From NCBI GenBank assembly GCA_945873125.1, contig CAMCBV010000007.1, positions 5,342-69,341 on the forward strand: DNA of 64,000 nt, given 5' to 3'. The notes beneath the pieces are model-generated. The model did no database searches. It saw only the letters and a list, made by a program, of their open reading frames with translations, and was not told where the DNA came from. The translations under genes were made by a program, and so were the position numbers. Source of the DNA: Prosthecobacter debontii. GTDB taxonomy: Bacteria > Verrucomicrobiota > Verrucomicrobiia > Verrucomicrobiales > Akkermansiaceae. Shown here one piece after another: positions 5,738 to 62,635 of this stretch. Every line of letters begins with the position of its first letter. Positions within the stretch are counted from its first letter, which is position 1.

Positions 5738-5800
5738 TTACGGGTGGGGCGAAGGTTTAGGCGAAGAAGCGGATGGGGTGCAAGCGGAAAAACGAGGAAA

Positions 5801-5908
5801 CTTCAGACTTTAAACTTTAAGTTTCAAGAGGGTGGATAAAAGAAAAGCCCGGATCATATGAATCTAGGCTCTCCTTTGATGTTTAGAGTTTAAAATTTAG
5901 AATTTAGA
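5801..5908. repeat. Two degenerate heptamer tandem arrays (CTTCAGA/CTTTAAA... and GTTTAGA/ATTTAGA...)
   Basis: 5801-5828 reads cttcaga ctttaaa ctttaag tttcaag. 5881-5908 reads gtttaga gtttaaa atttaga atttaga and overlaps the frr stop. Confidence 0.75.
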
Positions 5909-6473
5909 TCTTCATTAAATCTTCTTCTTTGGAGACTGCCAATTCATCGATTTTTTTTGTATATTTGTTGGTGAGGTCTTGGACTTGTTTTTCGTAATCT
6001 TTGAAAGAATCCTCGGTAAGGATGACATCGGCCTTCATTTTTTTGGCTTCGTCGAGTCCGGCTTTGCGGGCTGAGCGGAGGCGAACCTTGGCTTCCTCGG
6101 CGAGTTGCTTGATGAGTTTGACCATGTCACGTCGGCGTTCTTCAGAGAGTTCCGGAATAGGCACGCGGATGGAGCGGTCCGCAGCAGCTGGATTAAGACC
6201 GAGTTTGGATTCCCGGATCGCTTTTTCGATGTCGCGAGTGGTGGATGGATCGAAAGGTTGCACATTGAGCATGCGGGGCTCGGGTGTATTGATCACGGCG
6301 AGTGTTTTAAGTTTTTGTACACCACCATAAGCATGCACATAGACATCGAGGTTATCAATCAGGGAGGGGGAAGCTTTGCCTGTCCTTACTCCTGAGAAAT
6401 CATGGATGAGGTGTTCAATACCGGACTCCATGTCGGCTTCGACTTTTTTGAGCGTTTGGATGGGATCTAACAT
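5904..6473 (-). CDS. frr: Ribosome recycling factor
   Basis: GVRTGKASPSLID, LNVQPFD, IRVPIPELSEERRRDMVK, VRLRSARK. Lies downstream of pyrH as usual. Confidence 0.97.
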   Translation of the reverse strand: MLDPIQTLKKVEADMESGIEHLIHDFSGVRTGKASPSLIDNLDVYVHAYGGVQKLKTLAVINTPEPRMLNVQPFDPSTTRDIEKAIRESKLGLNPAAADRSIRVPIPELSEERRRDMVKLIKQLAEEAKVRLRSARKAGLDEAKKMKADVILTEDSFKDYEKQVQDLTNKYTKKIDELAVSKEEDLMKI

Positions 6474-6475
6474 AA

Positions 6476-6564
6476 TTTTAAATTCAAGTTTTAAGATATA
6501 AATCTCAGGCTGGAGAAAACAACCTTGCGAACAATTTTGATCATTGAAATTTGAGATTTGGAAT
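6476..6564. repeat. Inverted pair of heptamer arrays between frr and pyrH
   Basis: The left arm is ttttaaa ttcaagt tttaaga tataaat ctcaggc (6476-6510). The right arm is ttgaaat ttgagat ttggaat (6544-6564), whose reverse complement attccaa atctcaa atttcaa resembles the left units. Confidence 0.7.
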
Positions 6565-6566
6565 TT

Positions 6567-28639: not shown

Positions 28640-31132
28640 ATGAACACCATTGATACCGTATTCGAATGGCTACTCGCCGCAACTCTACGAGCATCCGTCC
28701 TCGTCGTCGCGGTACTTTTTATCCAAATGATTGTCCGCCGCTGGCTGTCTGCTGGTTGGCGTCATGCCTTGTGGTTGCCGATGTTGGCAGTCCTAGTTAT
28801 CCCTGTTTTGCCTGAAGCCTCGTTCGGCTTATTTCCTAAAGCAGCAGAACAACCGACCACAGCTTCTGAAGTATTTGTTAGCTCAAGTGGCTCTACTGAA
28901 ACTTCCATCAGCGCCATGCCTGCGCCTGAAGTCGAGGCAGAAATGAAAACTGCATCTCCAATCAACGTCGCCGCGCCCGTGAATTATTTCGCCATCGCAT
29001 GGCTTGTCGGAGCTTGTGGAGTGTTGGCTGCGGGTATCATTGGATACCGCCAGAACATGCTCCGGATACGGACAAACGCTATAACACCGGATCGTATGCT
29101 GCAAGCAAGTATCGACGAAGCAGCTCGTGAAGTGGGTCTCAAACGTACGCCACAGACTTTAATTTCCTCGTCGGTCGCAAGCCCCGCAGTGACCGGATTT
29201 ATTCGCCCCATTCTGCTTCTGCCTGCCGGTTTTCCTGAAGGTTTCAGTGCATCTGAAGTTCGTTTGATCTTGCTCCATGAGTTAACTCACTTGAAGCGAC
29301 TCGATCTACAACTGAACTGGTTAGTATGCGTGTTACAAGCCGCGCATTGGTTTAATCCGCTTCTTTGGTTCGCTTTTGCTAGAATGCGTGCAGATCGTGA
29401 AGCTGCTTGTGATGCAAGCGTGCTCTCGATCGATGCTAAAGATTACCGTGCAGAATATGGCAGTGCGTTGCTTAAGCTTGAGTGCGTGGCACCATCGCGA
29501 ATGCTGAGCCTTGGCTTCGTCGGAATTTTTGAGCGAGATTCTGAAATCAAATCCCGAATTAAAGAAATTTCTGCACACCGTCCGAATCGATTCTTATGGC
29601 AAGCTGTAGGTGGTTCTATCGTTACGTTACTCATGGTCTTTGGAATTACGAAAGGTCAAGAAGCCAAGCCTCAAGAAGTGGCAGCTGCGCCCGCTGAATT
29701 AAAAGTGGATGAAGCAACGGTTGAGATACAAAACAAACTCAATTCGATCATTATTCCGCGCATTGATTTTGAAGACAGAACCCTCCAAGAATCTATCGAT
29801 TATCTTCGTCTGCGCGCAGCAGCGTTAGATGAGAAAGAATTGGATCCGAAGAAGAAGGGCTTCAATTTTGTGATTCTCAATCCGAATGAGGGCGCTGCAG
29901 CTATCAAAATCGATGAGTTGAGACTGAGAAACGTGCCCTTAAGCACGGCACTCAAATTAATATGTGACAAAACCCACTACCGCTACACGGTGGAAAACTT
30001 TTCGGTAGTTCTCGCCCCGAATGATCAGCCAAGTAAACCCATGGAGGGGGTAATTCCACTTCCTGCAGCCAAGGTGGATGAAGCAACGGTTGAGATACAA
30101 AACAAACTCAATTCGATCATTATCCCGCGCATTGATTTTGAAGACAGAACCCTCCAAGAATCTATCGATTATCTTCGTATGCGCGCAGCAGAGTTCGATG
30201 AGGAAGAATTGGATCCTGCGAAAAAAGGTTTAAATTTTGTGATTCTAAATCCGAATGAGGGCGCTGCAGCTATCAAAATCGATGAGTTGAAACTAAGAAA
30301 CGTGCCCTTAAGCACGGTACTTAAATTAATGTGTGACAAAATCCACTACCGCTACTCGGTGGAAAACTTTTCGGTAGTTCTCGCTCCAGACATGGATCCT
30401 GAAAACGCCACCGCTAAAACTGAGTTGGCTTATTTGGATGATCCCATCCGCACAAACCCTGCGCTTACCCATGGTCATGTCAAGAAGGTCGATCAAGTTC
30501 GCCGCACTCTCTACATGGCACAAGGCTACTATGATCTCGGTAAATACGATCTCGCAAAAAAAGAGTATGAAGATGTTCTTCGCATTGATCCACACAACGA
30601 AGCTGCTCGTCGTGGGATGGAAAAAATTGCACAGTCGACTCGCGCTGAGTTGTTGATGCAAGTCGACCAAGCATGGGAGTTATCTATCCCTGCCGATGTC
30701 CCGACGTTCGATCCGGTAACAACCAGAGGCCCTGGCCAAACCGATGGCGTTGTTGCTATCAATGCAAAACTTCGCAACATCATCATTCCTACAATTGATT
30801 TCGAGGACAGAACGGTTGAAGAAGCGATTGATTATCTTCGCTTGCGTGCTGGTGAACTTGATGTGAGTGAGCTCGACCCCGCAAAAAAAGGCGTCAACTT
30901 GGTCATTCTTCGTCCCAAAAGTAGCCTAGGTGGCGGTTTGGTTCCTGCAGAAGGAGAATTGCCAGCGGGTGAGGATTTATTGGGTGGTGGCGGTGATTTA
31001 GGTGCAGCGCGTATTGACGAGCTTCGTTTGCGCAACGCTCCGCTGGGTGTTGCCCTCGCATACATCTGTGATAAAACTAACTATCGGTATGAGGTGAGAA
31101 ACCAAGTAGTAGTCCTTTCTCCTATAAATTAA
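28640..31132 (+). CDS. BlaR1/M56 family metallopeptidase sensor with a TPR and three secretin-N-like domains
   Basis: WLVGA TM, SPAVTGFIRPILLLP, HELTHLKRLD (HExxH), DREAACD. Three IIIPxIDFED.T..E.IDYLR domains and a TPR-like segment follow. Confidence 0.9.
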   Translation: MNTIDTVFEWLLAATLRASVLVVAVLFIQMIVRRWLSAGWRHALWLPMLAVLVIPVLPEASFGLFPKAAEQPTTASEVFVSSSGSTETSISAMPAPEVEAEMKTASPINVAAPVNYFAIAWLVGACGVLAAGIIGYRQNMLRIRTNAITPDRMLQASIDEAAREVGLKRTPQTLISSSVASPAVTGFIRPILLLPAGFPEGFSASEVRLILLHELTHLKRLDLQLNWLVCVLQAAHWFNPLLWFAFARMRADREAACDASVLSIDAKDYRAEYGSALLKLECVAPSRMLSLGFVGIFERDSEIKSRIKEISAHRPNRFLWQAVGGSIVTLLMVFGITKGQEAKPQEVAAAPAELKVDEATVEIQNKLNSIIIPRIDFEDRTLQESIDYLRLRAAALDEKELDPKKKGFNFVILNPNEGAAAIKIDELRLRNVPLSTALKLICDKTHYRYTVENFSVVLAPNDQPSKPMEGVIPLPAAKVDEATVEIQNKLNSIIIPRIDFEDRTLQESIDYLRMRAAEFDEEELDPAKKGLNFVILNPNEGAAAIKIDELKLRNVPLSTVLKLMCDKIHYRYSVENFSVVLAPDMDPENATAKTELAYLDDPIRTNPALTHGHVKKVDQVRRTLYMAQGYYDLGKYDLAKKEYEDVLRIDPHNEAARRGMEKIAQSTRAELLMQVDQAWELSIPADVPTFDPVTTRGPGQTDGVVAINAKLRNIIIPTIDFEDRTVEEAIDYLRLRAGELDVSELDPAKKGVNLVILRPKSSLGGGLVPAEGELPAGEDLLGGGGDLGAARIDELRLRNAPLGVALAYICDKTNYRYEVRNQVVVLSPIN
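29704..30387 (+). repeat. Intragenic direct repeat of about 315 bp, offset 369 bp
   Basis: 29704-30018 versus 30073-30387. A hand count gives about 22 mismatches, in frame. Confidence 0.93.
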
Positions 31133-31350: not shown

Positions 31351-32454
31351 ATGAGACGTGCGCGTTGGATAGCTCCTTGGAAGGATTCGTTGGAAAAGCC
31401 TTCGATTTACCATTGTATTTCAAGGGTTGTGGAGCGGCGGTATGCGTTTGGGGTGGAGGAGAAGGAAAAGTTCCGGATGTTCATGCGGATGTATGAGAAT
31501 TTCAGCGGATGTCGGGTTTTGTCCTATTGCATCATGAGCAATCACATCCATTTGCTGGTGGAGGTTCCGCCGAAGCCGGTGGAAGGATTTTCCGATGATG
31601 TGTTTCTCAAGCGTCTTTCTGCTCTATACAGCAAGGCGTTTGTGGCGGATGTGGCCGTGCAAATCCACGAAGCCCGGCACGAGGGCGGTGTGGAGGGAGG
31701 AAACCCAGAGCGAGTGGAGGAAATCAAAGCGAGATTCAGTTACCGGATGCATGATTTGGGACAGTTCATGAAAGGGTTGTTGCAACGATTTACCCAGTGG
31801 TTCAACGGTCAGCACAAGCGCAAGGGAAGGCTTTGGGAGGATAGATTCAAGAGCGTGATCGTAGAAAGCGGCACAGCAGCGCGAATGATCGCCGCCTACA
31901 TCGATCTCAATCCCGTTAGAGCAGGAATGGTCGAAGAACCGGCGGACTACCGCTGGAGCAGCTATGGCGAAGCGGTAGGAGGTCGCGTAAAAGACTGTGG
32001 TCTCACGCGATTGAAAGGAAATGGGAAGAAAGCCAGGGAAGGCTTGGTGCGAGCGATCATGTCCGACGATCCCAGCGTGGGATTTGATGCAATGATGTGG
32101 AAGGGGGCATCGAGAGATTATAGAAGATTGATGGATATGGCGTTGGAGCGGAAACCATCGAACGCGAATGCAGTTGTTAGATCGATACAGGTGGAAAAGA
32201 GCCTGGAGTGTAGAGGAGATAGAGGAGAGAAACGACTGGGAGAGTTGAGTATGGCAAAGATCCTGCGGAAAAAAGTGAGGTATTTCTCAGACGGAGCGGT
32301 GATAGGCAGTAAAGAGTTCGTGAACGAAGCGTTCACGGCTGCACGTGAGAGATTTTCAGAGAGGAGAAAAGACGGCGCACGCAAGATGCGGGGCATTGGC
32401 AAAGGAACTGGAGGGACGTTGTGGAGTGTTAGGGATTTGAGGGTGAGGGTGTGA
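31351..32454 (+). mobile_element. HUH (Y1) transposase, REP-associated tyrosine transposase (RAYT)-like
   Basis: IYHCISR, YCIMSNHIHLL (HUH), QRFTQWFNGQHKRKGRLWEDRFKS, YIDLNPVRAGMV..PADYRWSSY. No terminal inverted repeats or target duplication were seen. A REP pair lies downstream. Confidence 0.88.
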
Positions 32455-45155: not shown

Positions 45156-45164
45156 GTGGTGGAA

Positions 45165-45193
45165 ATTTTAAACTTTAAATTTTTAAACCTCAA
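45165..45193. repeat. Heptamer array between trpE and trpG
   Basis: attttaa actttaa atttttaa acctcaa. Confidence 0.6.
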
Positions 45194-50519: not shown

Positions 50520-50616
50520 TCTTAAATCTCAAGTTTCAAAGTTCAAATTTCAAGGAAAGACATAGGAATAGAAACGAATCCCCAGAGTTGCCTGAAAGTT
50601 GGAATCTAAAGTTTCA
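50520..50616. repeat. Heptamer arrays between ppaC and argS
   Basis: tcttaaa tctcaag tttcaaa gttcaaa tttcaag (50520-50554), and a partly inverted cctgaaa gttggaa tctaaag tttca (50591-50616) overlapping the argS stop. Confidence 0.72.
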
Positions 50617-56396: not shown

Positions 56397-57863
56397 TTAC
56401 TCTTCGAGGTTATGGAGTTTGGAGATGCCGTAACTTGCTTGAACTCGGCGATTTGCTGCCTCGACTTCGGCACTGGGGATGACGAGAGGGCGGTTCGCTC
56501 CATAAAGTTCGATGGTATGGAATTCCGGAGGATTTTCCTTATTCAGAAGTTCTTGAGCTTGGCTGAGGCTCGTGACAGATATACCGTTGATTTTTTCCAC
56601 GGCAAGACCGGTAAAATCATCCATTTGTGAAGTCACGGAATCGGGTTGGATCTGGGTGAGGATGATGATGTCCTTTTTCTCCGTGAATATTCCTTTTGAA
56701 ACATAATCGGTATACAGCCTGCGCACGGTTACATCTGTAAATTTCGAGGCGGCGAAAAGGTTGGTATCCAGCGGTTGAAATACCAGTCCAGCAAAGACGA
56801 CGTATCGGGGTTTAGCCTCGTAGCGGATGGAATACATCCGGGCGGCCGGAAGAGGTTTGATTTTAATATCAAAATCCAGTGAAACACCTTCTCGAATCAC
56901 TCGGGCAGCGACTTGATCGCCGCTGAATTTACGCTCGACAATTTCGGCGAGATCGACCTTTTCCCCATCGATCATGACTTGTCCCGCGGAGTCGATCGTT
57001 TGTCCGTCGAGTGAGATGAGCACGTCGCCGGATTTCAAAATGCCATCTGCGGAGCTGGTTGGCGTGACACGGGTGATGAGGATACCCTTGTCATCATTGG
57101 GTAAGCCCAGAGCCTTGCGCATCGCAGGATTGTAAAGTGGGAAATCGCTGATTCCGAGTTCGGCGTATTGATCGTAACTTCCATCGGTGATATCCTTCAT
57201 GAAACGGTTTATGACCGGAGTTGGAATGATGTAGCCGGTGTTATCCGCTTGGCGGAGACCTTGAAAAGCAACACCAACGACTTTTCCGTTTTGGACCACA
57301 GGGCCGCCGGAGTTGCCGGGGTTGATGGCGGCATCGATTTGGACGATAAGATGAGAATCGGCACGACTGTGCGAGTAAGGTTGGAAGTCGATGCGTGAGA
57401 CGATGCCTTTGGTGACGGACAGACGGGATCCACCGACAGGATAGCCAATCACGGTGACTTCGGATTCGAGCTGAGGAGTATCACCGAAAGAAAATATTGG
57501 AAAGTCCTTGAAGTCTGAGAAGTCCTCAAGTGAGAGCAAAGCGAGGTCACAATCATGAGCGATGAAATCGACTTTTGCAGGATATTTTTTCGAGCTGCCG
57601 TGGACGGTGACAAGGATGCGATTTTGATTCGATGCAACGTGTGCGTTGGTGAGAATCTGATTTTTACCAACAATGAATCCGGTTCCAATGCCGCCACCAA
57701 ATTGACCGGAGTTCCAGGGAGTTTGGTAATCGGGATTGATCGTATCCACAGCGATCCGAACAACGGATCGATAGATGGCCGAGTTATTCGCAGGCTGGTT
57801 TTGTGCTTCAAGAAGCTGGAGACTGATTGCCGTGAGAACGAGAACGGGAATAAGACGAATCAT
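56397..57863 (-). CDS. DegP/HtrA-type serine protease with PDZ domains (plant Deg2-like)
   Basis: Signal peptide. Catalytic triad in LTNAH, CDLALL and AINPGNSGGP. VIGYPVGG and C-terminal PDZ segments. Confidence 0.92.
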   Translation of the reverse strand: MIRLIPVLVLTAISLQLLEAQNQPANNSAIYRSVVRIAVDTINPDYQTPWNSGQFGGGIGTGFIVGKNQILTNAHVASNQNRILVTVHGSSKKYPAKVDFIAHDCDLALLSLEDFSDFKDFPIFSFGDTPQLESEVTVIGYPVGGSRLSVTKGIVSRIDFQPYSHSRADSHLIVQIDAAINPGNSGGPVVQNGKVVGVAFQGLRQADNTGYIIPTPVINRFMKDITDGSYDQYAELGISDFPLYNPAMRKALGLPNDDKGILITRVTPTSSADGILKSGDVLISLDGQTIDSAGQVMIDGEKVDLAEIVERKFSGDQVAARVIREGVSLDFDIKIKPLPAARMYSIRYEAKPRYVVFAGLVFQPLDTNLFAASKFTDVTVRRLYTDYVSKGIFTEKKDIIILTQIQPDSVTSQMDDFTGLAVEKINGISVTSLSQAQELLNKENPPEFHTIELYGANRPLVIPSAEVEAANRRVQASYGISKLHNLEE

Positions 57864-57879
57864 GTTGGGGAGTAAGCTA

Positions 57880-57914
57880 AAGAGTGAAAAGTGAAGAGGG
57901 AAGAGTGAAAAATG
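57880..57914. repeat. Heptamer tandem array upstream of the protease gene
   Basis: aagagtg aaaagtg aagaggg aagagtg aaaaatg. Confidence 0.72.
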
Positions 57915-57915
57915 A

Positions 57916-58015
57916 GTAAGGTGCCATCACCGAGGACACCACATGAAATGTTGAAGAATGGCATATTTCAATGGATAATCGGTTCGCGCGGCTACCTCGG
58001 CGATGGAGCCCTACC
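57916..58015. repeat. GTAG-type REP doublet (REPIN-like) supplying the ArsR stop codon
   Basis: The plus-strand unit GTAAGGTGCCATCACCGAGGACACC and the minus-strand unit GTAGGGCTCCATCGCCGAGGTAGCC are in inverted orientation. Confidence 0.72.
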
Positions 58016-58918
58016 TATACCCAACAGGGTTTGAAACTTCGGTGGCGCCTCTTCCTTATCTGCAATGAGGGTTTCGATTTCCGTGAAGCCGGATTTTTTG
58101 AGCATGGACGCGAGTTGACTTTCGGAGAAGCCCAGCCAGCGATCTGCGTATAGTTCACGGGCCTCGGTGAAGGTATGTTGAAGGAGATCGAGGATGATGA
58201 TGCGCCCGCCGGGTTTTAAAATACGGTGCGCTGCATCGATGGCACGCTGGGGGTTTTCTGCGTGATGCAGAGCCTGGCTGAGTATGGCGAGATCAATGCT
58301 GCTATTATCAATAGGAGGGCTCTCGATATCGCCGATACGGAATTCCAAGTTGTGCAGGCCGTTTTTGTGAGCAAGGGATTGCGCATATTCGACCATTTTC
58401 GGTGAGAGATCGACTGCGATGACCTTCTCCGCACGTTGAGCAATCAACTGGGAAAGTGTGCCTTCGCCCGCCCCGAGATCGGCGACGTTGCGGTAGTTGA
58501 GAGATTTGATCAATGCCTCGGCCAATGCTTTCCATGAGCGGCCGGGGACGTAGTCCTTGCCAAAGCGCCCCGCCAGTTCATCGAAATACGCACGGGCGTA
58601 GTCTTTGCGTTTGGAAAGAATATGCTGGAGCGCTAGGTTGTCTGCGCTGGTCTCAGGGATTTCGGCGATGGCATGGGAGACGATCGCTGAGAGCTCGCTC
58701 GGTAGGCAGGCTGAGTAAACATTGTTTTTTCCAGCGCGCTCATCGGTTACCAAACCAGCTGCTTTCAGCTGCGAAAGCTGGGTTGAAATCCGGCTTTGGC
58801 CCATACCGAGAATTTCCTGAAGCTCAGCGACCGAGATCGCATCCTGGTCAAGCAGTGCGAGAATCCGCAACCGAGTGGTATCGGAGATAAGTTTCAGGCA
58901 TTTGATGGTTGACGACAT
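57992..58918 (-). CDS. ArsR/SmtB HTH - SAM-dependent methyltransferase fusion (SahR-like regulator)
   Basis: [10 protein letters not shown]...[23 protein letters not shown], then DLGAGEG, AVDLS, LSQALHH, LKPGGR. Divergent from metK-ahcY. Confidence 0.9.
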
Positions 58919-58932
58919 GGCAAACATGTTAC

Positions 58933-58956
58933 ATCAACGCATCACGATTTGACGAT
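58933..58956. promoter_or_regulatory. Candidate operator for the ArsR-methyltransferase
   Basis: Two overlapping ATC-N10-GAT imperfect palindromes (ATCAACGCATCACGAT and ATCACGATTTGACGAT) in the 56-bp divergent spacer. Confidence 0.35.
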
Positions 58957-58974
58957 ACGAAAATAAAAAAACAA

Positions 58975-60189
58975 ATGAGCACCTATATTTTTTCCTCAGA
59001 ATCAGTTGGCGAAGGTCATCCGGACAAAGTTTCTGACACCATTTCCGATGCTATTCTCGATGCTTGCCTAGCGATTGATCCGACCAGTCGCGTAGCCTGC
59101 GAAACCTTTGTAAAGAGCAATATCGTGGTAGTCGGCGGTGAAATTACCATTCCGAAACTTCAGGACAAGAAGAACGGAACGACCAAGCCGATCGATGAAG
59201 TGATCAACATCGGTAAGGTGATCCGTGATGCCGTTCGTGGAATCGGTTATACGAATACCGACGATGTGTTTCATGCGGACACCCTTTTCATCAACAACTA
59301 CCTCACCATTCAAAGCCCGGACATCGCGCAAGGTGTGGATGCGAAAGCAGCCGAAGGCAAGAAAACCAAAAAGCAAGGCGCAGGCGACCAGGGCATCATG
59401 TTCGGATATGCATGCGACGAAACTCCCGAGCTCATGCCAGCTCCTATCATGTTCGCGCACCGCCTCGGCCGCGAGCTAACAAGAATCCGCAAAGCCGGCA
59501 AGCTCGCTCCATGGCTTCGTCCTGATGCGAAAACTCAGGTTTCTGTCGAGTATGTGAACGGCAAACCGACCCGCATCGTCAACGTGGTGATTTCCACCCA
59601 GCACACCGCTGATGTGGCTCATAAAGACATCGAGAAATTCTGCATCGAGCAAGTGATCAAAAAAGTCCTGCCAAAAAACATGCTCACCTCGAAAACCGAG
59701 TTCCTCATTAACCCGACCGGCAAATTCGTCATCGGCGGTCCTCAGGGCGACAGCGGTCTGACCGGTCGTAAAATCATTGTTGATACCTACGGTGGCATGG
59801 GTCGCCACGGTGGTGGTGCTTTCTCCGGGAAAGACGCATCGAAAGTCGACCGCTCCGCAGCCTACATGGGTCGTTGGGTTGCGAAGAACGTGGTTGCAGC
59901 AGGACTCGCCAGCAAATGCGAAGTTCAGTTCGCCTACGCTATTGGTCATCCAGAGCCTTGCAGCGTGCACATCGATACTTTTGGCACAGGAACCGTTTCC
60001 GATGCGAAAATTCTCGGAGCCGTTCTTAAAGTGTTTTCCTTCAATCCTGCAGACATCGTCAAGCAGCTCAACCTGCTTCGCCCTATCTTTTCGAAAACCA
60101 CCAACTACGGTCACTTTGGAAAAGATGATTCCGATATCACTTGGGAGAAGACGGACAAAGTTTCCGCGCTCAAAAAGGCGATCGGCTGA
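58975..60189 (+). CDS. metK: S-adenosylmethionine synthetase
   Basis: [74 protein letters not shown]. Confidence 0.98.
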
Positions 60190-60196
60190 GGCCGAC

Positions 60197-60233
60197 AGAC
60201 AGAAGATTGTTAGACAGAAGACAGAAGATAAGA
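60197..60233 (+). repeat. Left AGACAGA heptamer arm of the four-helix-bundle insert
   Basis: AGACAGA AGATTGTT AGACAGA AGACAGA AGATAAGA ends one base before the ATG. Confidence 0.85.
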
Positions 60234-60234
60234 G

Positions 60235-60612
60235 ATGCATAATTTCGAAGAACTAGAAGTTTGGAAACGTTCATCGCGGTTAGCGGTGGATGTGTACAAA
60301 TTAATAGACGCTATCCGCTTATATAGTCTGAGAGATCAGATGGCTCGCTCTTGCCTTTCGATTCCGTGTAATATTGCTGAAGGTGCGGATCGTGACAGTG
60401 ATCGTGAGTTCCGAAGATTCTTAGCTATATCAAAAGGTTCTGCAGGTGAGCTTAGGACTCAACTACATATAGGCCTCAAAGCTGGAATCTTTTCTGAGGA
60501 AGTCGCAAGGCATTTGATCGATGAAGTGAAAGAAATATCATCAATGATCGAAGGTCTACGTAAGCGGTTACGTCCGAAAATGATCAATTCTTTATTGAGC
60601 CTATTTTTCTAG
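60235..60612 (+). CDS. Four helix bundle protein (23S rRNA intervening-sequence protein family)
   Basis: FEELEVWKRS, LRDQMARSCLSIPCNIAEG, FRRFLAISKGSAGELRTQL. It looks more AT-rich than the flanking metK and ahcY. Confidence 0.95.
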   Translation: MHNFEELEVWKRSSRLAVDVYKLIDAIRLYSLRDQMARSCLSIPCNIAEGADRDSDREFRRFLAISKGSAGELRTQLHIGLKAGIFSEEVARHLIDEVKEISSMIEGLRKRLRPKMINSLLSLFF

Positions 60613-60655
60613 TCTTATGTCTTCTGTCTCCAAGCCTTCTGTCTAAAGCCTTCTA
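60613..60655 (-). repeat. Right (inverted) TCTGTCT heptamer arm of the four-helix-bundle insert
   Basis: TCTTATG TCT TCTGTCT CCAAGCCT TCTGTCT AAAGCCT TCTA begins immediately after the TAG stop. Confidence 0.85.
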
Positions 60656-60704
60656 TTCATCATCCACTCTATAAAAACAAACAACACTTCTATAAAATAA
60701 CATC

Positions 60705-62117
60705 ATGAGCTTCACAGACTATAAAGTAAGAGACATCGGCCTTGCCGATTTTGGACGTAAGGAAATCGATATCGCCGAGCACGAAATGCCGGGCTTGATG
60801 GCGACACGTGAGAAGTATGGCAAAACCAAGCCGCTCCAGGGGGTTCGCATCATGGGTTCGTTGCACATGACCATTCAGACCGCGGTGTTGATCGAAACGC
60901 TTGCAGATCTCGGTGCTGAGGTGCGCTGGGTTTCGTGCAATATTTTCTCTACCCAAGATCACGCGGCCGCAGCGATTGCAGCTCGTGAAATTCCTGTCTT
61001 CGCATGGAAAGGCGAGACCTTGGAAGAATATTGGTGGTGCACCTGGCAGGCGCTCGTTAACAAAGACGGCCTTGGTCCGCAGCTTATCGTCGATGACGGT
61101 GGCGACGCGACCTTGCTCATCCACAAAGGCTACGAAATGGAAAACGGATCCAACTGGATCGACAGCCCGGGTGAGAGCGAAGAGGAGCAAGTCATCAAAG
61201 ACCTCTTGAAAGACATCAAAGTCAAGCAACCCGGAATTTTCCAAACGATCGTTAAAGATTGGAAAGGCGTTTCCGAGGAAACCACCACCGGTGTGCATCG
61301 CCTCTATCAGATGGCCAAGGCTGGTAAGCTTCTTGTCCCAGCGATCAACGTGAACGATTCCGTGACCAAGTCGAAATTCGATAACCTCTACGGCTGCCGC
61401 GAGTCGCTGTTAGATGGTATCAAGCGCGCGACCGATGTGATGATCTCTGGCAAAGTAGGCGTGGTCTGCGGTTACGGCGATGTCGGCAAAGGTTGTGCGC
61501 AAGCGCTCCGTGGCGCCGGCGCGCAAGTGGTTGTGACCGAGGTCGATCCGATCTGCGCGCTGCAAGCCGCGATGGAAGGTTTCCGTGTTCTCACGATTGA
61601 AGACACGCTTGGCTGGGGAGATATCTATGTCACGACTACCGGTAACAAAGACATCATCACCCTCGATCATATGTCGAAAATGAAAGATCAGGCGATCGTT
61701 TGTAACATCGGTCACTTTGACAACGAGATCCAGATGGACAAGTTGAACAAGGCACCGGGTGTGACTCGTCTGAACATCAAGCCTCAAGTGGACAAATACA
61801 CTTTCGCCACAGGCAACAGCATTTACATGCTTGCTGAAGGTCGCTTGGTGAACCTCGGTTGCGGAACCGGCCATCCATCTTTCGTGATGTCCAATAGCTT
61901 CACCAACCAGACGCTCGCTCAAATCGATCTCTGGGAAAACCGCGAGACCTACAAAGCCGGTCAAGTGACCGTCCTTCCGAAACACCTCGACGAAGAGGTT
62001 GCCCGTCTTCACCTCGCAAAAATCGGAGCGAAGCTCACCAAGATTACTAAAGACCAAGCGGATTACATCGGTATATCATCGGAAGGCCCCTTCAAGGCGG
62101 ATCACTACCGTTATTAA
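60705..62117 (+). CDS. ahcY: Adenosylhomocysteinase
   Basis: [83 protein letters not shown]. Confidence 0.98.
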
Positions 62118-62138
62118 TTTTCCTCGTTAGGAAATTTC

Positions 62139-62173
62139 AAAAGCCAGTCGGGTTTAGATCCGGCTGGCTTTTT
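62139..62173. terminator. Bidirectional terminator after ahcY, also facing the cassette array
   Basis: AAAAGCCAGTCGG-GTTTAGAT-CCGGCTGGCTTTT. Confidence 0.88.
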
Positions 62174-62263
62174 CTGTTACGTTAGAGGAATGGCAACGCC
62201 GGTGGAAAGTCTCAAATTCAATCAGACGCGCTCATCGGCGTTGCCATCTCCAACTTGTTCTGC
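62174..62263 (-). mobile_element. attC site (distal cassette)
   Basis: Minus strand GCAGAAC AAGTT GGA(G)ATGGCAACGCCG...CGGCGTTGCCATTCC TCTAAC GTAACAG. The L boxes pair perfectly with one extra G. R' is non-canonical (GTA). Confidence 0.88.
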
Positions 62264-62635
62264 TTCTTGGTTATCAGATGACCTCTTGAATCGGCTCCAA
62301 GCAAGTAAAGCGACTGATGGAACTATGAGAAAGAGAATCAGATTCATTGGGTAAGCGAGAAAGCTAGTGGGGCCGACAAAATCCAACCAAGGGGATTCTG
62401 CATCGTCACGCTGGAAAACGACACTCGGGATCGGCCAACCGTAAAACCTCGTATTCGAGTTGGAATAATAATTGTAGTTGAATGTCGTGAAGATGCAGGC
62501 ACCGGCTGCCACTACAAACCATGACCAATAGCTAAGTCGAAGAACCTTCGATGTAGAATTACTTGTTGCCTTTATCATCGCTGCGATCACAGCAACAAGG
62601 GCCACGAGAAAAGCCGCTATAATGAAAAGTGCCAT
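62222..62635 (-). CDS. Integron cassette ORF, hypothetical membrane protein
   Basis: Three hydrophobic segments. The C-terminus EAEQVGDGNADERV is encoded by the attC arm. The core site GTTCTGC lies 43 bp upstream. Confidence 0.8.
   Translation of the reverse strand: MALFIIAAFLVALVAVIAAMIKATSNSTSKVLRLSYWSWFVVAAGACIFTTFNYNYYSNSNTRFYGWPIPSVVFQRDDAESPWLDFVGPTSFLAYPMNLILFLIVPSVALLAWSRFKRSSDNQEAEQVGDGNADERV

Follow-up and report, generated by a model that had tools for sequence, protein, structure and literature searches.

Introduction

Intervening sequences (IVSs) that carry an open reading frame (ORF) have been described in the 23S rRNA of Coxiella burnetii, Leptospira, Xanthomonas and Brucella (PMC4990558). 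In C. burnetii the IVS has a 28-bp stem, and the ATG of its S23p gene is preceded by a Shine-Dalgarno (SD)-like AGAAGA and then by the tandem heptamers GACAGAT/GACAGAA; RNase III cuts this IVS at the first repeat in vitro (PMC4990558). The S23p family (PF05635) forms homopentamers (PDB 2GSC; PMC4990558). The nature of rRNA IVSs and the role of their ORF have been an open question since about 1990.

Heptameric arrays are known from Nostoc (STRR) and from Xanthomonas and Nostoc (GGGNATC). They usually comprise about four units, are enriched between aligned ORFs and are mostly transcribed (PMC4692102). When the literature was searched, heptamers and a stem together with a PF05635 gene were found described only for the Coxiella rRNA IVS; otherwise PF05635 was mentioned in passing, as Avd-like or in gene catalogues.

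Here we describe a PF05635 gene enclosed by inverted heptamer arms between metK and ahcY, in a 64-kb stretch of DNA that is referred to as the window. A module of gene and heptamer stem in ordinary operons would make a general cassette class out of an rRNA curiosity, and would link a very large, uncharacterised Avd-related family to the unexplained heptameric repeats of bacteria. What is new at this locus is a clean pair of alleles, a relocation with defined ends and the selection figures, and also the tests of wobble and polarity and a negative result on the correspondence between unit and protein.

Layout of the metK-ahcY junction

The upstream cistron, metK (S-adenosylmethionine synthetase; 58975–60189, plus strand), contained three S-AdoMet_synt Pfam domains (E-values from 1e-65 to 5e-33), and the downstream cistron, ahcY (S-adenosylhomocysteine hydrolase; 60705–62117, plus strand), matched AdoHcyase with an E-value of 4.7e-151. 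Both were matched by Pfam over their full length. The entire spacer between them (60190–60704) holds a single ORF, at 60235–60612 on the plus strand, that encodes a protein of 125 residues. This protein matched PF05635 (23S_rRNA_IVP) with an E-value of 4.9e-31 and a score of 107.5 bits, the cut-off being 33.8, and the match spanned profile positions 1–105 of 106. It is thereby a member of the PF05635/TIGR02436 family of four-helix-bundle proteins (23S rRNA IVS protein, S23p, Avd-like). The pentameric Xanthomonas protein XCC0516 (PDB 2GSC) was also matched (E = 2e-14). The window genome is a MAG of Luteolibacter (Verrucomicrobiota), 94% complete, and the gene calls are our own ORF readings. The cassette is not an assembly artefact, because five independent MAGs from samples of different years (L007, L037–L040) all carry it.

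A repeat search placed two inverted arms of 37 nt, 78% complementary to each other, at 60197–60233 and 60608–60644 of the plus strand, and Tandem Repeats Finder gave a period of 7 in both. The 5′ arm is purine-rich and is made up of five units: AGACAGA, AGATTGTT (8 nt), AGACAGA, AGACAGA and AGATAAG. Its last bases, AAGAG, are SD-like and stand 1 nt from the ATG. The 3′ arm (TCTTATG TCTTCTG TCT-CCAAGCC-TTCTGTCT) repeats the 5′ arm in reverse complement, apart from an internal loop that faces the 8-nt unit; it is pyrimidine-rich and poor in G, and overlaps the TAG stop codon, with its core (60613–60629) beginning directly behind the TAG. The preliminary description of this DNA had reported the same tight bracketing of the ORF at its start and stop codons.

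The motif AGACAGAAGA, with at most one mismatch, was matched nine times in the 64-kb window, compared with 3.5 ± 1.8 times in shuffled sequences, and nine matches were reached in none of 100 shuffles. Six of the nine fall in the arms, with three per strand. When the region 60180–60720 was folded as RNA, the arms were paired in both the MFE and the centroid structures (z = −2.9).

At the outer left end of the cassette, a short palindrome (TCGGC-tgag-GCCGA; 60182–60195, plus strand), which appeared as a stem in the structure scan, bridges this end with the last metK codons and stop. GCCGAC or GCCGAT stands right behind the metK stop in many orthologous cassettes (L041, L047, L049, L064, L066). 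On the other side, the 3′ arm is followed by the A/C-rich leader of ahcY (60645–60704, plus strand), as delimited by an alignment of five genomes and by a comparison of a filled with an empty junction; the proximal part of this leader is gained and lost along with the cassette in relatives.

Other genes nearby encode FolK, a DegP-like protease, an ArsR-type methyltransferase regulator and membrane proteins. Among the neighbouring ORFs of the cassette there was no transposase, integrase or reverse transcriptase, in agreement with the earlier statement that the element splits metK from ahcY with no adjacent mobility or reverse-transcriptase gene. On the sense strand, no terminator-like site was present between the metK, cassette gene and ahcY cistrons, and an Rfam search of 58800–62300 at permissive E-values gave no rRNA, no SAM riboswitch and no other family.

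Comparison with described systems

The 23S IVS is the closest relative of the cassette. Both carry a gene of the same S23p/PF05635 family that is looped by a long stem of terminal inverted repeats, both have tandem heptamers directly before the ATG, the Coxiella unit being almost equal to the AGACAGA...AGATAAGAG-ATG of the cassette, and both are sporadically distributed and devoid of a mobility gene. However, the cassette resides in the metK-ahcY spacer, whereas IVSs are found in helix 25 or 45 of 23S rRNA. Its ORF shows a dN/dS of 0.02–0.03, in contrast to the Coxiella ORF, which has been reported as decaying and probably untranslated (PMC4990558). Excision by RNase III was shown for Coxiella, but is proposed for the cassette only by analogy. 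Terminal inverted repeats enclose the ORF just as in an IVS, and the insertion is not in 23S rRNA. The cassette works most like an IVS, yet it is not one, because it is not inserted in 23S rRNA.

With Avd, the protein shares a homologous four-helix-bundle pentamer fold (2GSC compared with 4DWL; PMC10053308), and it is likewise small and basic, with a presumed affinity for nucleic acid. A DGR is defined by an adjacent reverse transcriptase and a pair of template and variable repeats, but near the cassette no such repeat pair was apparent and there is no reverse transcriptase; the sole RVT_1 match of the window genome lies away from it, on contig C53. Heptamer arms, in turn, are not a feature of DGRs.

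REP and REPIN elements resemble the arms in being short intergenic inverted repeats that form hairpins, have abundant gene-less copies and stand between co-directional genes, but REPINs lack a cargo gene and are linked to a REP-flanked HUH (Y1) transposase. A link to RAYT/HUH proteins was considered and rejected. Eight matches to PF01797 were obtained, of which several were spurious and lay within large housekeeping proteins; the genuine RAYT-like HUH genes (for example at 31351–32454 of the window) had no period-7 flanks.

Integron cassettes and MITEs offer a further parallel, with a small promoterless gene or none, imperfect inverted repeats, a transcribed setting and gain and loss of the unit. 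However, no integrase is encoded among the neighbouring ORFs and no attC or attI was apparent. Transposons, ISs and MITEs are recognised by a transposase and a target-site duplication; the cassette has no target-site duplication and no transposase family, and it differs from MITEs also in the tandem heptamer arrays that flank its gene on both sides.

Filled and empty junctions

Twenty-six relatives have linked metK and ahcY. The junction was filled in six of these and empty in 20, with empty spacers of 21–121 nt; when counted in the same genus, there were two filled against 19 empty junctions. An invariant junction, which the preliminary description had named as evidence against its insertion unit, is not what is seen. 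A protein search yielded 36 further filled junctions, from MAGs of Luteolibacter, Haloferula and Akkermansiaceae and from one of Chthoniobacter. Filled junctions were present in the cultured strains Haloferula chungangensis CCUG 61920 and H. sargassicola NBRC 104335, and these carriers, along with the natural pair of filled and empty alleles described below, provide handles on the locus. In an ahcY tree of 61 loci the filled and empty states are interleaved and call for at least 10 changes, of which at least eight are forced by well-supported branches. Repeated loss is the more economical reading of this tree, which is unrooted and whose protein-search sample is biased to filled sites, because filled states occur throughout it, the deepest branches included.

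The empty junction L029 and the filled junction L047 have flanks that are 94% identical and differ by a clean indel, whose left border is 1 nt behind the metK stop and whose right border is 24 nt short of the ahcY ATG; it comprises the cassette gene with its two arms and a further 20 nt or so. On comparison with L047, the empty L029 junction showed neither a remnant of an arm nor a convincing duplication of the target. Nor did the filled/empty comparisons give a consistent direct repeat at the borders; TAACRCC was present at both borders in L047 only. The empty spacers of G015 and G004 best matched the 3′ arms of TTCAG-type and AGAC-type cassettes, but the score of 33, as against shuffled maxima of 27 and 30, is just above chance, and arm remnants at these sites are suggestive only. 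Import by homologous recombination with divergent flanks was examined for the pairs L008/L010 and L029/L047 and discarded, since flank identity shows no drop towards the junction.

None of the five closest genomes (88–98% DNA identity) has an empty junction. Identity to the window is 95–99% for the flanks of L037 but just 87–88% for its cassette; for L038 it is 99% in the cassette and 91–98% in the flanks. Among close strains the genealogy of the cassette is separate from that of its flanks, which ordinary short-tract recombination could explain. The cassette has long been established between metK and ahcY in Verrucomicrobiales.

In the protein tree, 39 of the junction genes form one clade (100/98) with two subclades that differ in the variable positions of the unit. 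The junction genes L030, L031, L035, L076 and L085 fall outside it. L030 and L031 group with L080 (99/96), whose cassette sits between nrdB and the ATP-cone nrdA. When the L080 cassette was aligned with those of L030 and L031 from the metK-ahcY junction, homology ran exactly from AAGTTTGYTAG to CTARCAAAC, that is, between the outer ends of the arms. These trees were built from short proteins. They show that gene and arms moved together, long ago, to a new location on at least two occasions within this part of the family. Taken as a whole, the gene and its arms behave as a single unit in inheritance, in loss and, over long periods, in relocation.

Selection and concerted evolution

When the window was compared with three close genomes, the dN/dS of the cassette gene was 0.02–0.03 at a dS of 0.72–0.75, a level of constraint equal to that of metK and ahcY. 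Among the five closest genomes the 5′ arm showed 0–2 differences in 37 nt. For the 3′ arm there were 1–3 differences in 32 nt in the closest genomes, and for the leader behind it, in the same comparison, 13–14 differences in 60 nt. The arms change about 10 times more slowly than synonymous sites. By these rates, both the cassette gene and its arms are functional and under strong purifying selection, and not parts of a decaying insertion. The proposal that the element is a minimal selfish insertion fits poorly with this dN/dS and with the absence of movement at the level of strains.

The variable dinucleotide of AGACNNA was the same in the 5′ and 3′ arms of 22 out of 32 orthologues, compared with 8.1 expected by permutation. 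The dinucleotide is thus homogenised both inside an arm and across the pair, and the two arms of a cassette show concerted evolution. We infer that their likeness is kept mainly at the level of DNA, by unit turnover and by conversion between the arms, and less by compensatory selection of the RNA type.

Wobble, polarity and a proposed RNase III account

An RNA-selected stem should favour G·U over A·C mismatches. Among the transition-type mismatches in the arms of 134 cassettes (see below), 111 were of the G·U type and 125 of the A·C type (P = 0.40), and after dereplication the numbers were 84 and 92. Terminator-like hairpins of the window genome, collected by the same unbiased matching, gave 102 G·U against 48 A·C (P = 1e-5). 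The arms, having no excess of G·U, are therefore without the signature of selection on RNA.

The strand composition of the arms was also examined. On the sense strand, the 5′ arm has more G than C in 118 cassettes, compared with 11 in which the reverse is true (P about 1e-23); with 90 distinct units as the basis of the count, the numbers are 79 and 7. It is clear that the polarity of the arms is fixed relative to the gene, the 5′ arm being rich in G and purines and the 3′ arm in C and pyrimidines. Polarity as a general property of hairpins was considered and set aside, the gene-less hairpins between co-directional genes of the window genome giving 1 against 4 in what is a very small sample. 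Since the polarity is tied to the strand of the gene, it implies a single-stranded stage. The simplest candidate for this stage is the mRNA, in which the purine-rich 5′ arm would double as the ribosome-binding region. It may be noted that the wobble and polarity tests point opposite ways on the choice between RNA and DNA. The missing wobble bias and the strict 5′-G-rich polarity limit the mechanisms that are possible.

Our leading account, to which we give somewhat less than an even chance, is that of an IVS-type gene cassette that has its home in an mRNA operon, not in an rRNA gene, and is processed by RNase III. In the metK-IVP-ahcY transcript, the paired arms would form a stem, some 37 bp long and interrupted by an internal loop, that would hide the ribosome-binding stretch of the cassette gene. 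The stem would serve as a substrate for RNase III, as it does in the Coxiella 23S IVS with its near-identical heptamer, and the cutting would make an insert of about 515 nt tolerable between coupled essential genes. Unit turnover in the DNA would keep both arms alike. An rnc gene, encoding RNase III, exists in the window genome. Excision of the cassette by RNase III is our best guess, drawn by analogy with Coxiella. Against this account, a stem requires no period-7 tandem structure, and something else must set the period. A cut by RNase III would also strip the SD-like stretch from the IVP mRNA, as in Coxiella, and this loss is hard to square with the strong selection on the protein.

The absence of a G·U bias would be expected if the arms acted as DNA and formed the termini of a mobile cassette of the hairpin type, much like terminal inverted repeats or the arms of REPINs. 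Here an enzyme whose gene lies elsewhere, or else the four-helix-bundle protein, would recognise or fold the DNA, and pairing in the RNA would be incidental. We regard such an element as unlikely, although much of the comparative evidence would suit it: the cassette is present or absent as a whole with clean borders, the same cassette with the same outer ends occurs in two different operons, the protein tree holds at least two changes of location and the metK-ahcY junction at least 8–10 gains or losses, the cassette genealogy is decoupled from the flanks in L037 and L038, and AGAC-type arms of like build surround an ORF6N gene on contig C75. On the other hand, no enzyme for the movement of the cassette DNA was found, there being no transposase, integrase or reverse transcriptase nearby and no consistent target-site duplication, and with all five of the closest genomes filled no recent movement is seen. 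The units differ among the cassettes of one genome, which makes a single sequence-reading enzyme acting in trans improbable; the RAYT-like HUH genes of the window genome have no heptamer flanks; and the strict polarity of the arms is unexpected for symmetrical DNA ends.

Armed PF05635 genes in other genomes

In the window genome, all six PF05635 genes have inverted period-7 flanks on both sides, and each of the six loci has its own unit (AGACAGA, GTGAAGA, AAATTTT/AAACTTT, TAGGTCC and others). For a wider survey, 196 relatives of three paralogues were taken from contigs of many phyla, with one genome per species. Each 5′ flank was aligned to the reverse complement of the 3′ flank of the same locus, and a locus was called armed when its score exceeded the 99th percentile of a control in which flanks of unrelated loci were paired. 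By this threshold, 134 of the 196 (68%) were armed, a fraction that overstates the rate in the whole family because the sample starts from armed genes, and whose loci are not independent of one another in phylogeny. Both the direct-orientation and the cross-locus control stayed far below the count of inverted arms. The preliminary description had named a general lack of such flanks in homologous genes as evidence against its element. Most of the homologues sampled do have them, and the view of the gene and its inverted heptamer arms as an IVS-type element was supported: the unit is real and recurrent, and lies outside rRNA.

Among the 134 armed loci, the best self-match was obtained at a lag of 7 in 109 and at a lag of 8 in 20, the mean self-match being 0.63 at lag 7 and 0.27 at other lags. 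The arms had a median length of 31.5 nt and comprised 4–5 units in 94 of the 134; the median gaps were 14 nt to the ATG and 6 nt behind the stop. A paralogue group located between nuoI and nuoJ was armed less often (21 of 51). ORF6N, used as a control family, was armed at one of 23 loci, and as this was the C75 copy alone, we rejected the idea that ORF6N is another family with arms.

At least 90 distinct units were counted among the 134 armed cassettes. A recognition code between protein and heptamer was tried and abandoned. GACAGAT-armed genes of Saprospiraceae, Elusimicrobia and Burkholderiales fall outside the clade of the window gene, and these three genes, being so distant, argue against a simple code in which each protein reads its own heptamer.

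Gene-less period-7 arrays

The window genome has about 99 period-7 arrays, compared with 7–33 for periods of 5, 6, 8 and 9, and merely six PF05635 genes. The other arrays in the window (5790–5910, 6544–6566, 45163–45183, 50524–50553 and 57880–57915) use different units, namely AAACTTT, AAATTTC and AGTGAAA; they are ordinary short spacers of co-directional genes, and often run up to a start codon. In a set of 80 loci from many phyla that have GACAGAT three times in tandem, four adjoin a PF05635 gene. The idea that the empty heptamer arrays of the window are footprints of the cassette was not supported by these counts, nor by the different units and the ordinary spacer positions of the arrays concerned. 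Rather, gene-less arrays are the commoner form, and PF05635 genes lie within a special kind of array, in inverted arrangement. The arrays of Nostoc and Xanthomonas resemble the gene-less arrays of the window genome in their period of 7 and in their position between aligned ORFs. They differ in that the published account names no gene family and explains the arrays by G-quadruplex (G4) formation (PMC4692102), whereas most of the units here (AGACAGA, AAATTTC, AGTGAAG) cannot form a G4.

The number of units per arm brings up another possibility, modelled on TRAP, which wraps its RNA. The pentameric ring may bind single-stranded heptamer arrays with about one unit per subunit, so that the gene regulates itself and the gene-less arrays in spacers are further targets; the cassette would then be a regulatory module of the host and not a parasite. 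The arms with 4–5 units in a homopentameric family would fit such a binder. The same may be said of the overlap between the 5′ arm and the ribosome-binding stretch, the strong purifying selection on the protein, the strand polarity, the large excess of period 7 (with arrays of the window lying directly before start codons), and the recurrence of the paralogue arm units AGTGAAG, AAATTTT and AGACAGA as gene-less arrays elsewhere in the window genome. Against it, the unit ignores the lineage of the protein, as the three distant GACAGAT-armed genes show; sister subclades use different units, and at least 90 units are spread over 134 cassettes. Moreover, a binder of single strands needs no complementarity between the arms, and 4–5 units are also usual in gene-less arrays (PMC4692102). 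We consider this possibility rather improbable. Neither it nor the DNA-level element is exclusive of the other or of the RNase III account, which we still prefer.

That there is nothing special about the locus, the arms being two ordinary spacers that are repetitive and complementary by chance, is hardly credible in spite of the abundance of period-7 spacer arrays in the window genome, for 134 of 196 relatives are armed against a 1% control threshold with other controls far lower, the ORF6N control is armed in just one of 23, the arms are conserved far beyond neutral sites and the motif count was reached in no shuffle out of 100; a chance origin of the arms is excluded by these counts.

A broader reading, which goes beyond the RNase III account, is offered tentatively and with more doubt than belief. 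Armed PF05635 genes may constitute one widespread class of hairpin-bounded cassettes that settle in any transcribed junction, the 23S IVSs being those copies that landed in rRNA; the pentamer would bind, process or propagate period-7 arrays as single strands, and the polarity of the arms would reflect this single-stranded stage.

Three minor observations concern the repeats of the window genome. Single-linkage clustering of the array units put nearly all arrays into one group. One of the RAYT-like genes has REP-like palindromes of its own, which are unrelated to the heptamers. Finally, the genome has one gene-less hairpin of the AGAC type, at C16:14927–15007.

Cassette flanks and related genes

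Elsewhere in the genome, a different cargo is framed by arms that match those of the window cassette in their AGAC type and in their build. At this locus (L363; G000:C75:1936-2812) the arms enclose an ORF6N (PF10543) gene of 203 aa instead of a PF05635 gene. The 8-nt second unit is present, as in the window's arms, and the arm polarity is likewise that of the window cassette. The L363 arms additionally carry an inner stem of 11 bp, GGAATAGGATT. None of 22 further ORF6N genes, all from relatives, was armed.

The metK-ahcY region (window 57234-62200) was compared with the corresponding loci of close MAGs. For L037, metK and ahcY were 95-99% identical to those of the window, but the cassette only 87-88%; L038 showed the opposite tendency. 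The closest MAGs are thus related in a mosaic pattern around metK-ahcY. Synteny with all four relatives stopped downstream of ahcY, from ~62190.

A palindrome, TCGGC-tgag-GCCGA (window 60182-60195), extends across the stop codon of metK and takes in the cassette's outer end. In many orthologous cassettes, the GCCGA(C/T) half was found again at the left end, directly behind the stop. The palindrome might mark the insertion point, or, if the metK mRNA is processed, might shield its 3' end.

Two longer PF05635-like proteins, L005 (G000:C27:32674-33528) and L006 (G000:C18:40480-41103), have open frames of ~284 and ~207 aa, respectively, with heptamer-type repeats both at the flanks and within the reading frame. 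In the C27 protein, the in-frame repeats read as DQSDRTD/DLTDLTD-like runs, and the C-terminal tail is zinc-ribbon-like (CxxC...CxxC).

Gene-less arrays and other elements

Over the whole genome, ~99 period-7 arrays were counted versus 7-33 for neighbouring periods. Gene-less examples in the window (5790-5910, 6544-6566, 45163-45183, 50524-50553, and 57880-57915) consist of AAACTTT, AAATTTC, and AGTGAAA types of unit. Each makes up a short spacer that separates two co-directional genes on the minus strand, and several end at the start codon; at 5790-5910 an array pair lies in inverted orientation with a loop of ~60 nt. Another inverted pair of heptamer arrays, very large and located outside the window, was observed between minus-strand genes (G000:C41:21450-21758), with GGTTCTT/GGTTCCT and then AACCAGG/AACTAGG units, arms of ~90-110 nt each, and a loop of ~110 nt without a long ORF. 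Also outside the window, the thyA-folA pair (G000:C8:83940-85470) is bracketed by two AT-rich heptamer arrays in inverted orientation, with 1.46 kb between them and an arm score of 37; this bracketing could be due to chance, because the AT-rich unit family is so common in the genome.

The window also holds an ORF of 367 aa (31351-32454, plus strand) with an IS200/RAYT-like HUH domain at the N terminus (PF01797 match, NHIHLL motif); the genome has only a few genes of this kind. No heptamers flank this ORF; another copy (G000:C4, near 9984) has its own REP-like palindromes on its flanks. The gene for a BlaR1/M56-like membrane protein of 830 aa (28640-31132) contains a tandem duplication of 369 nt (29705-30384; 1.8 copies, 93% identical), by which a protein domain is doubled.
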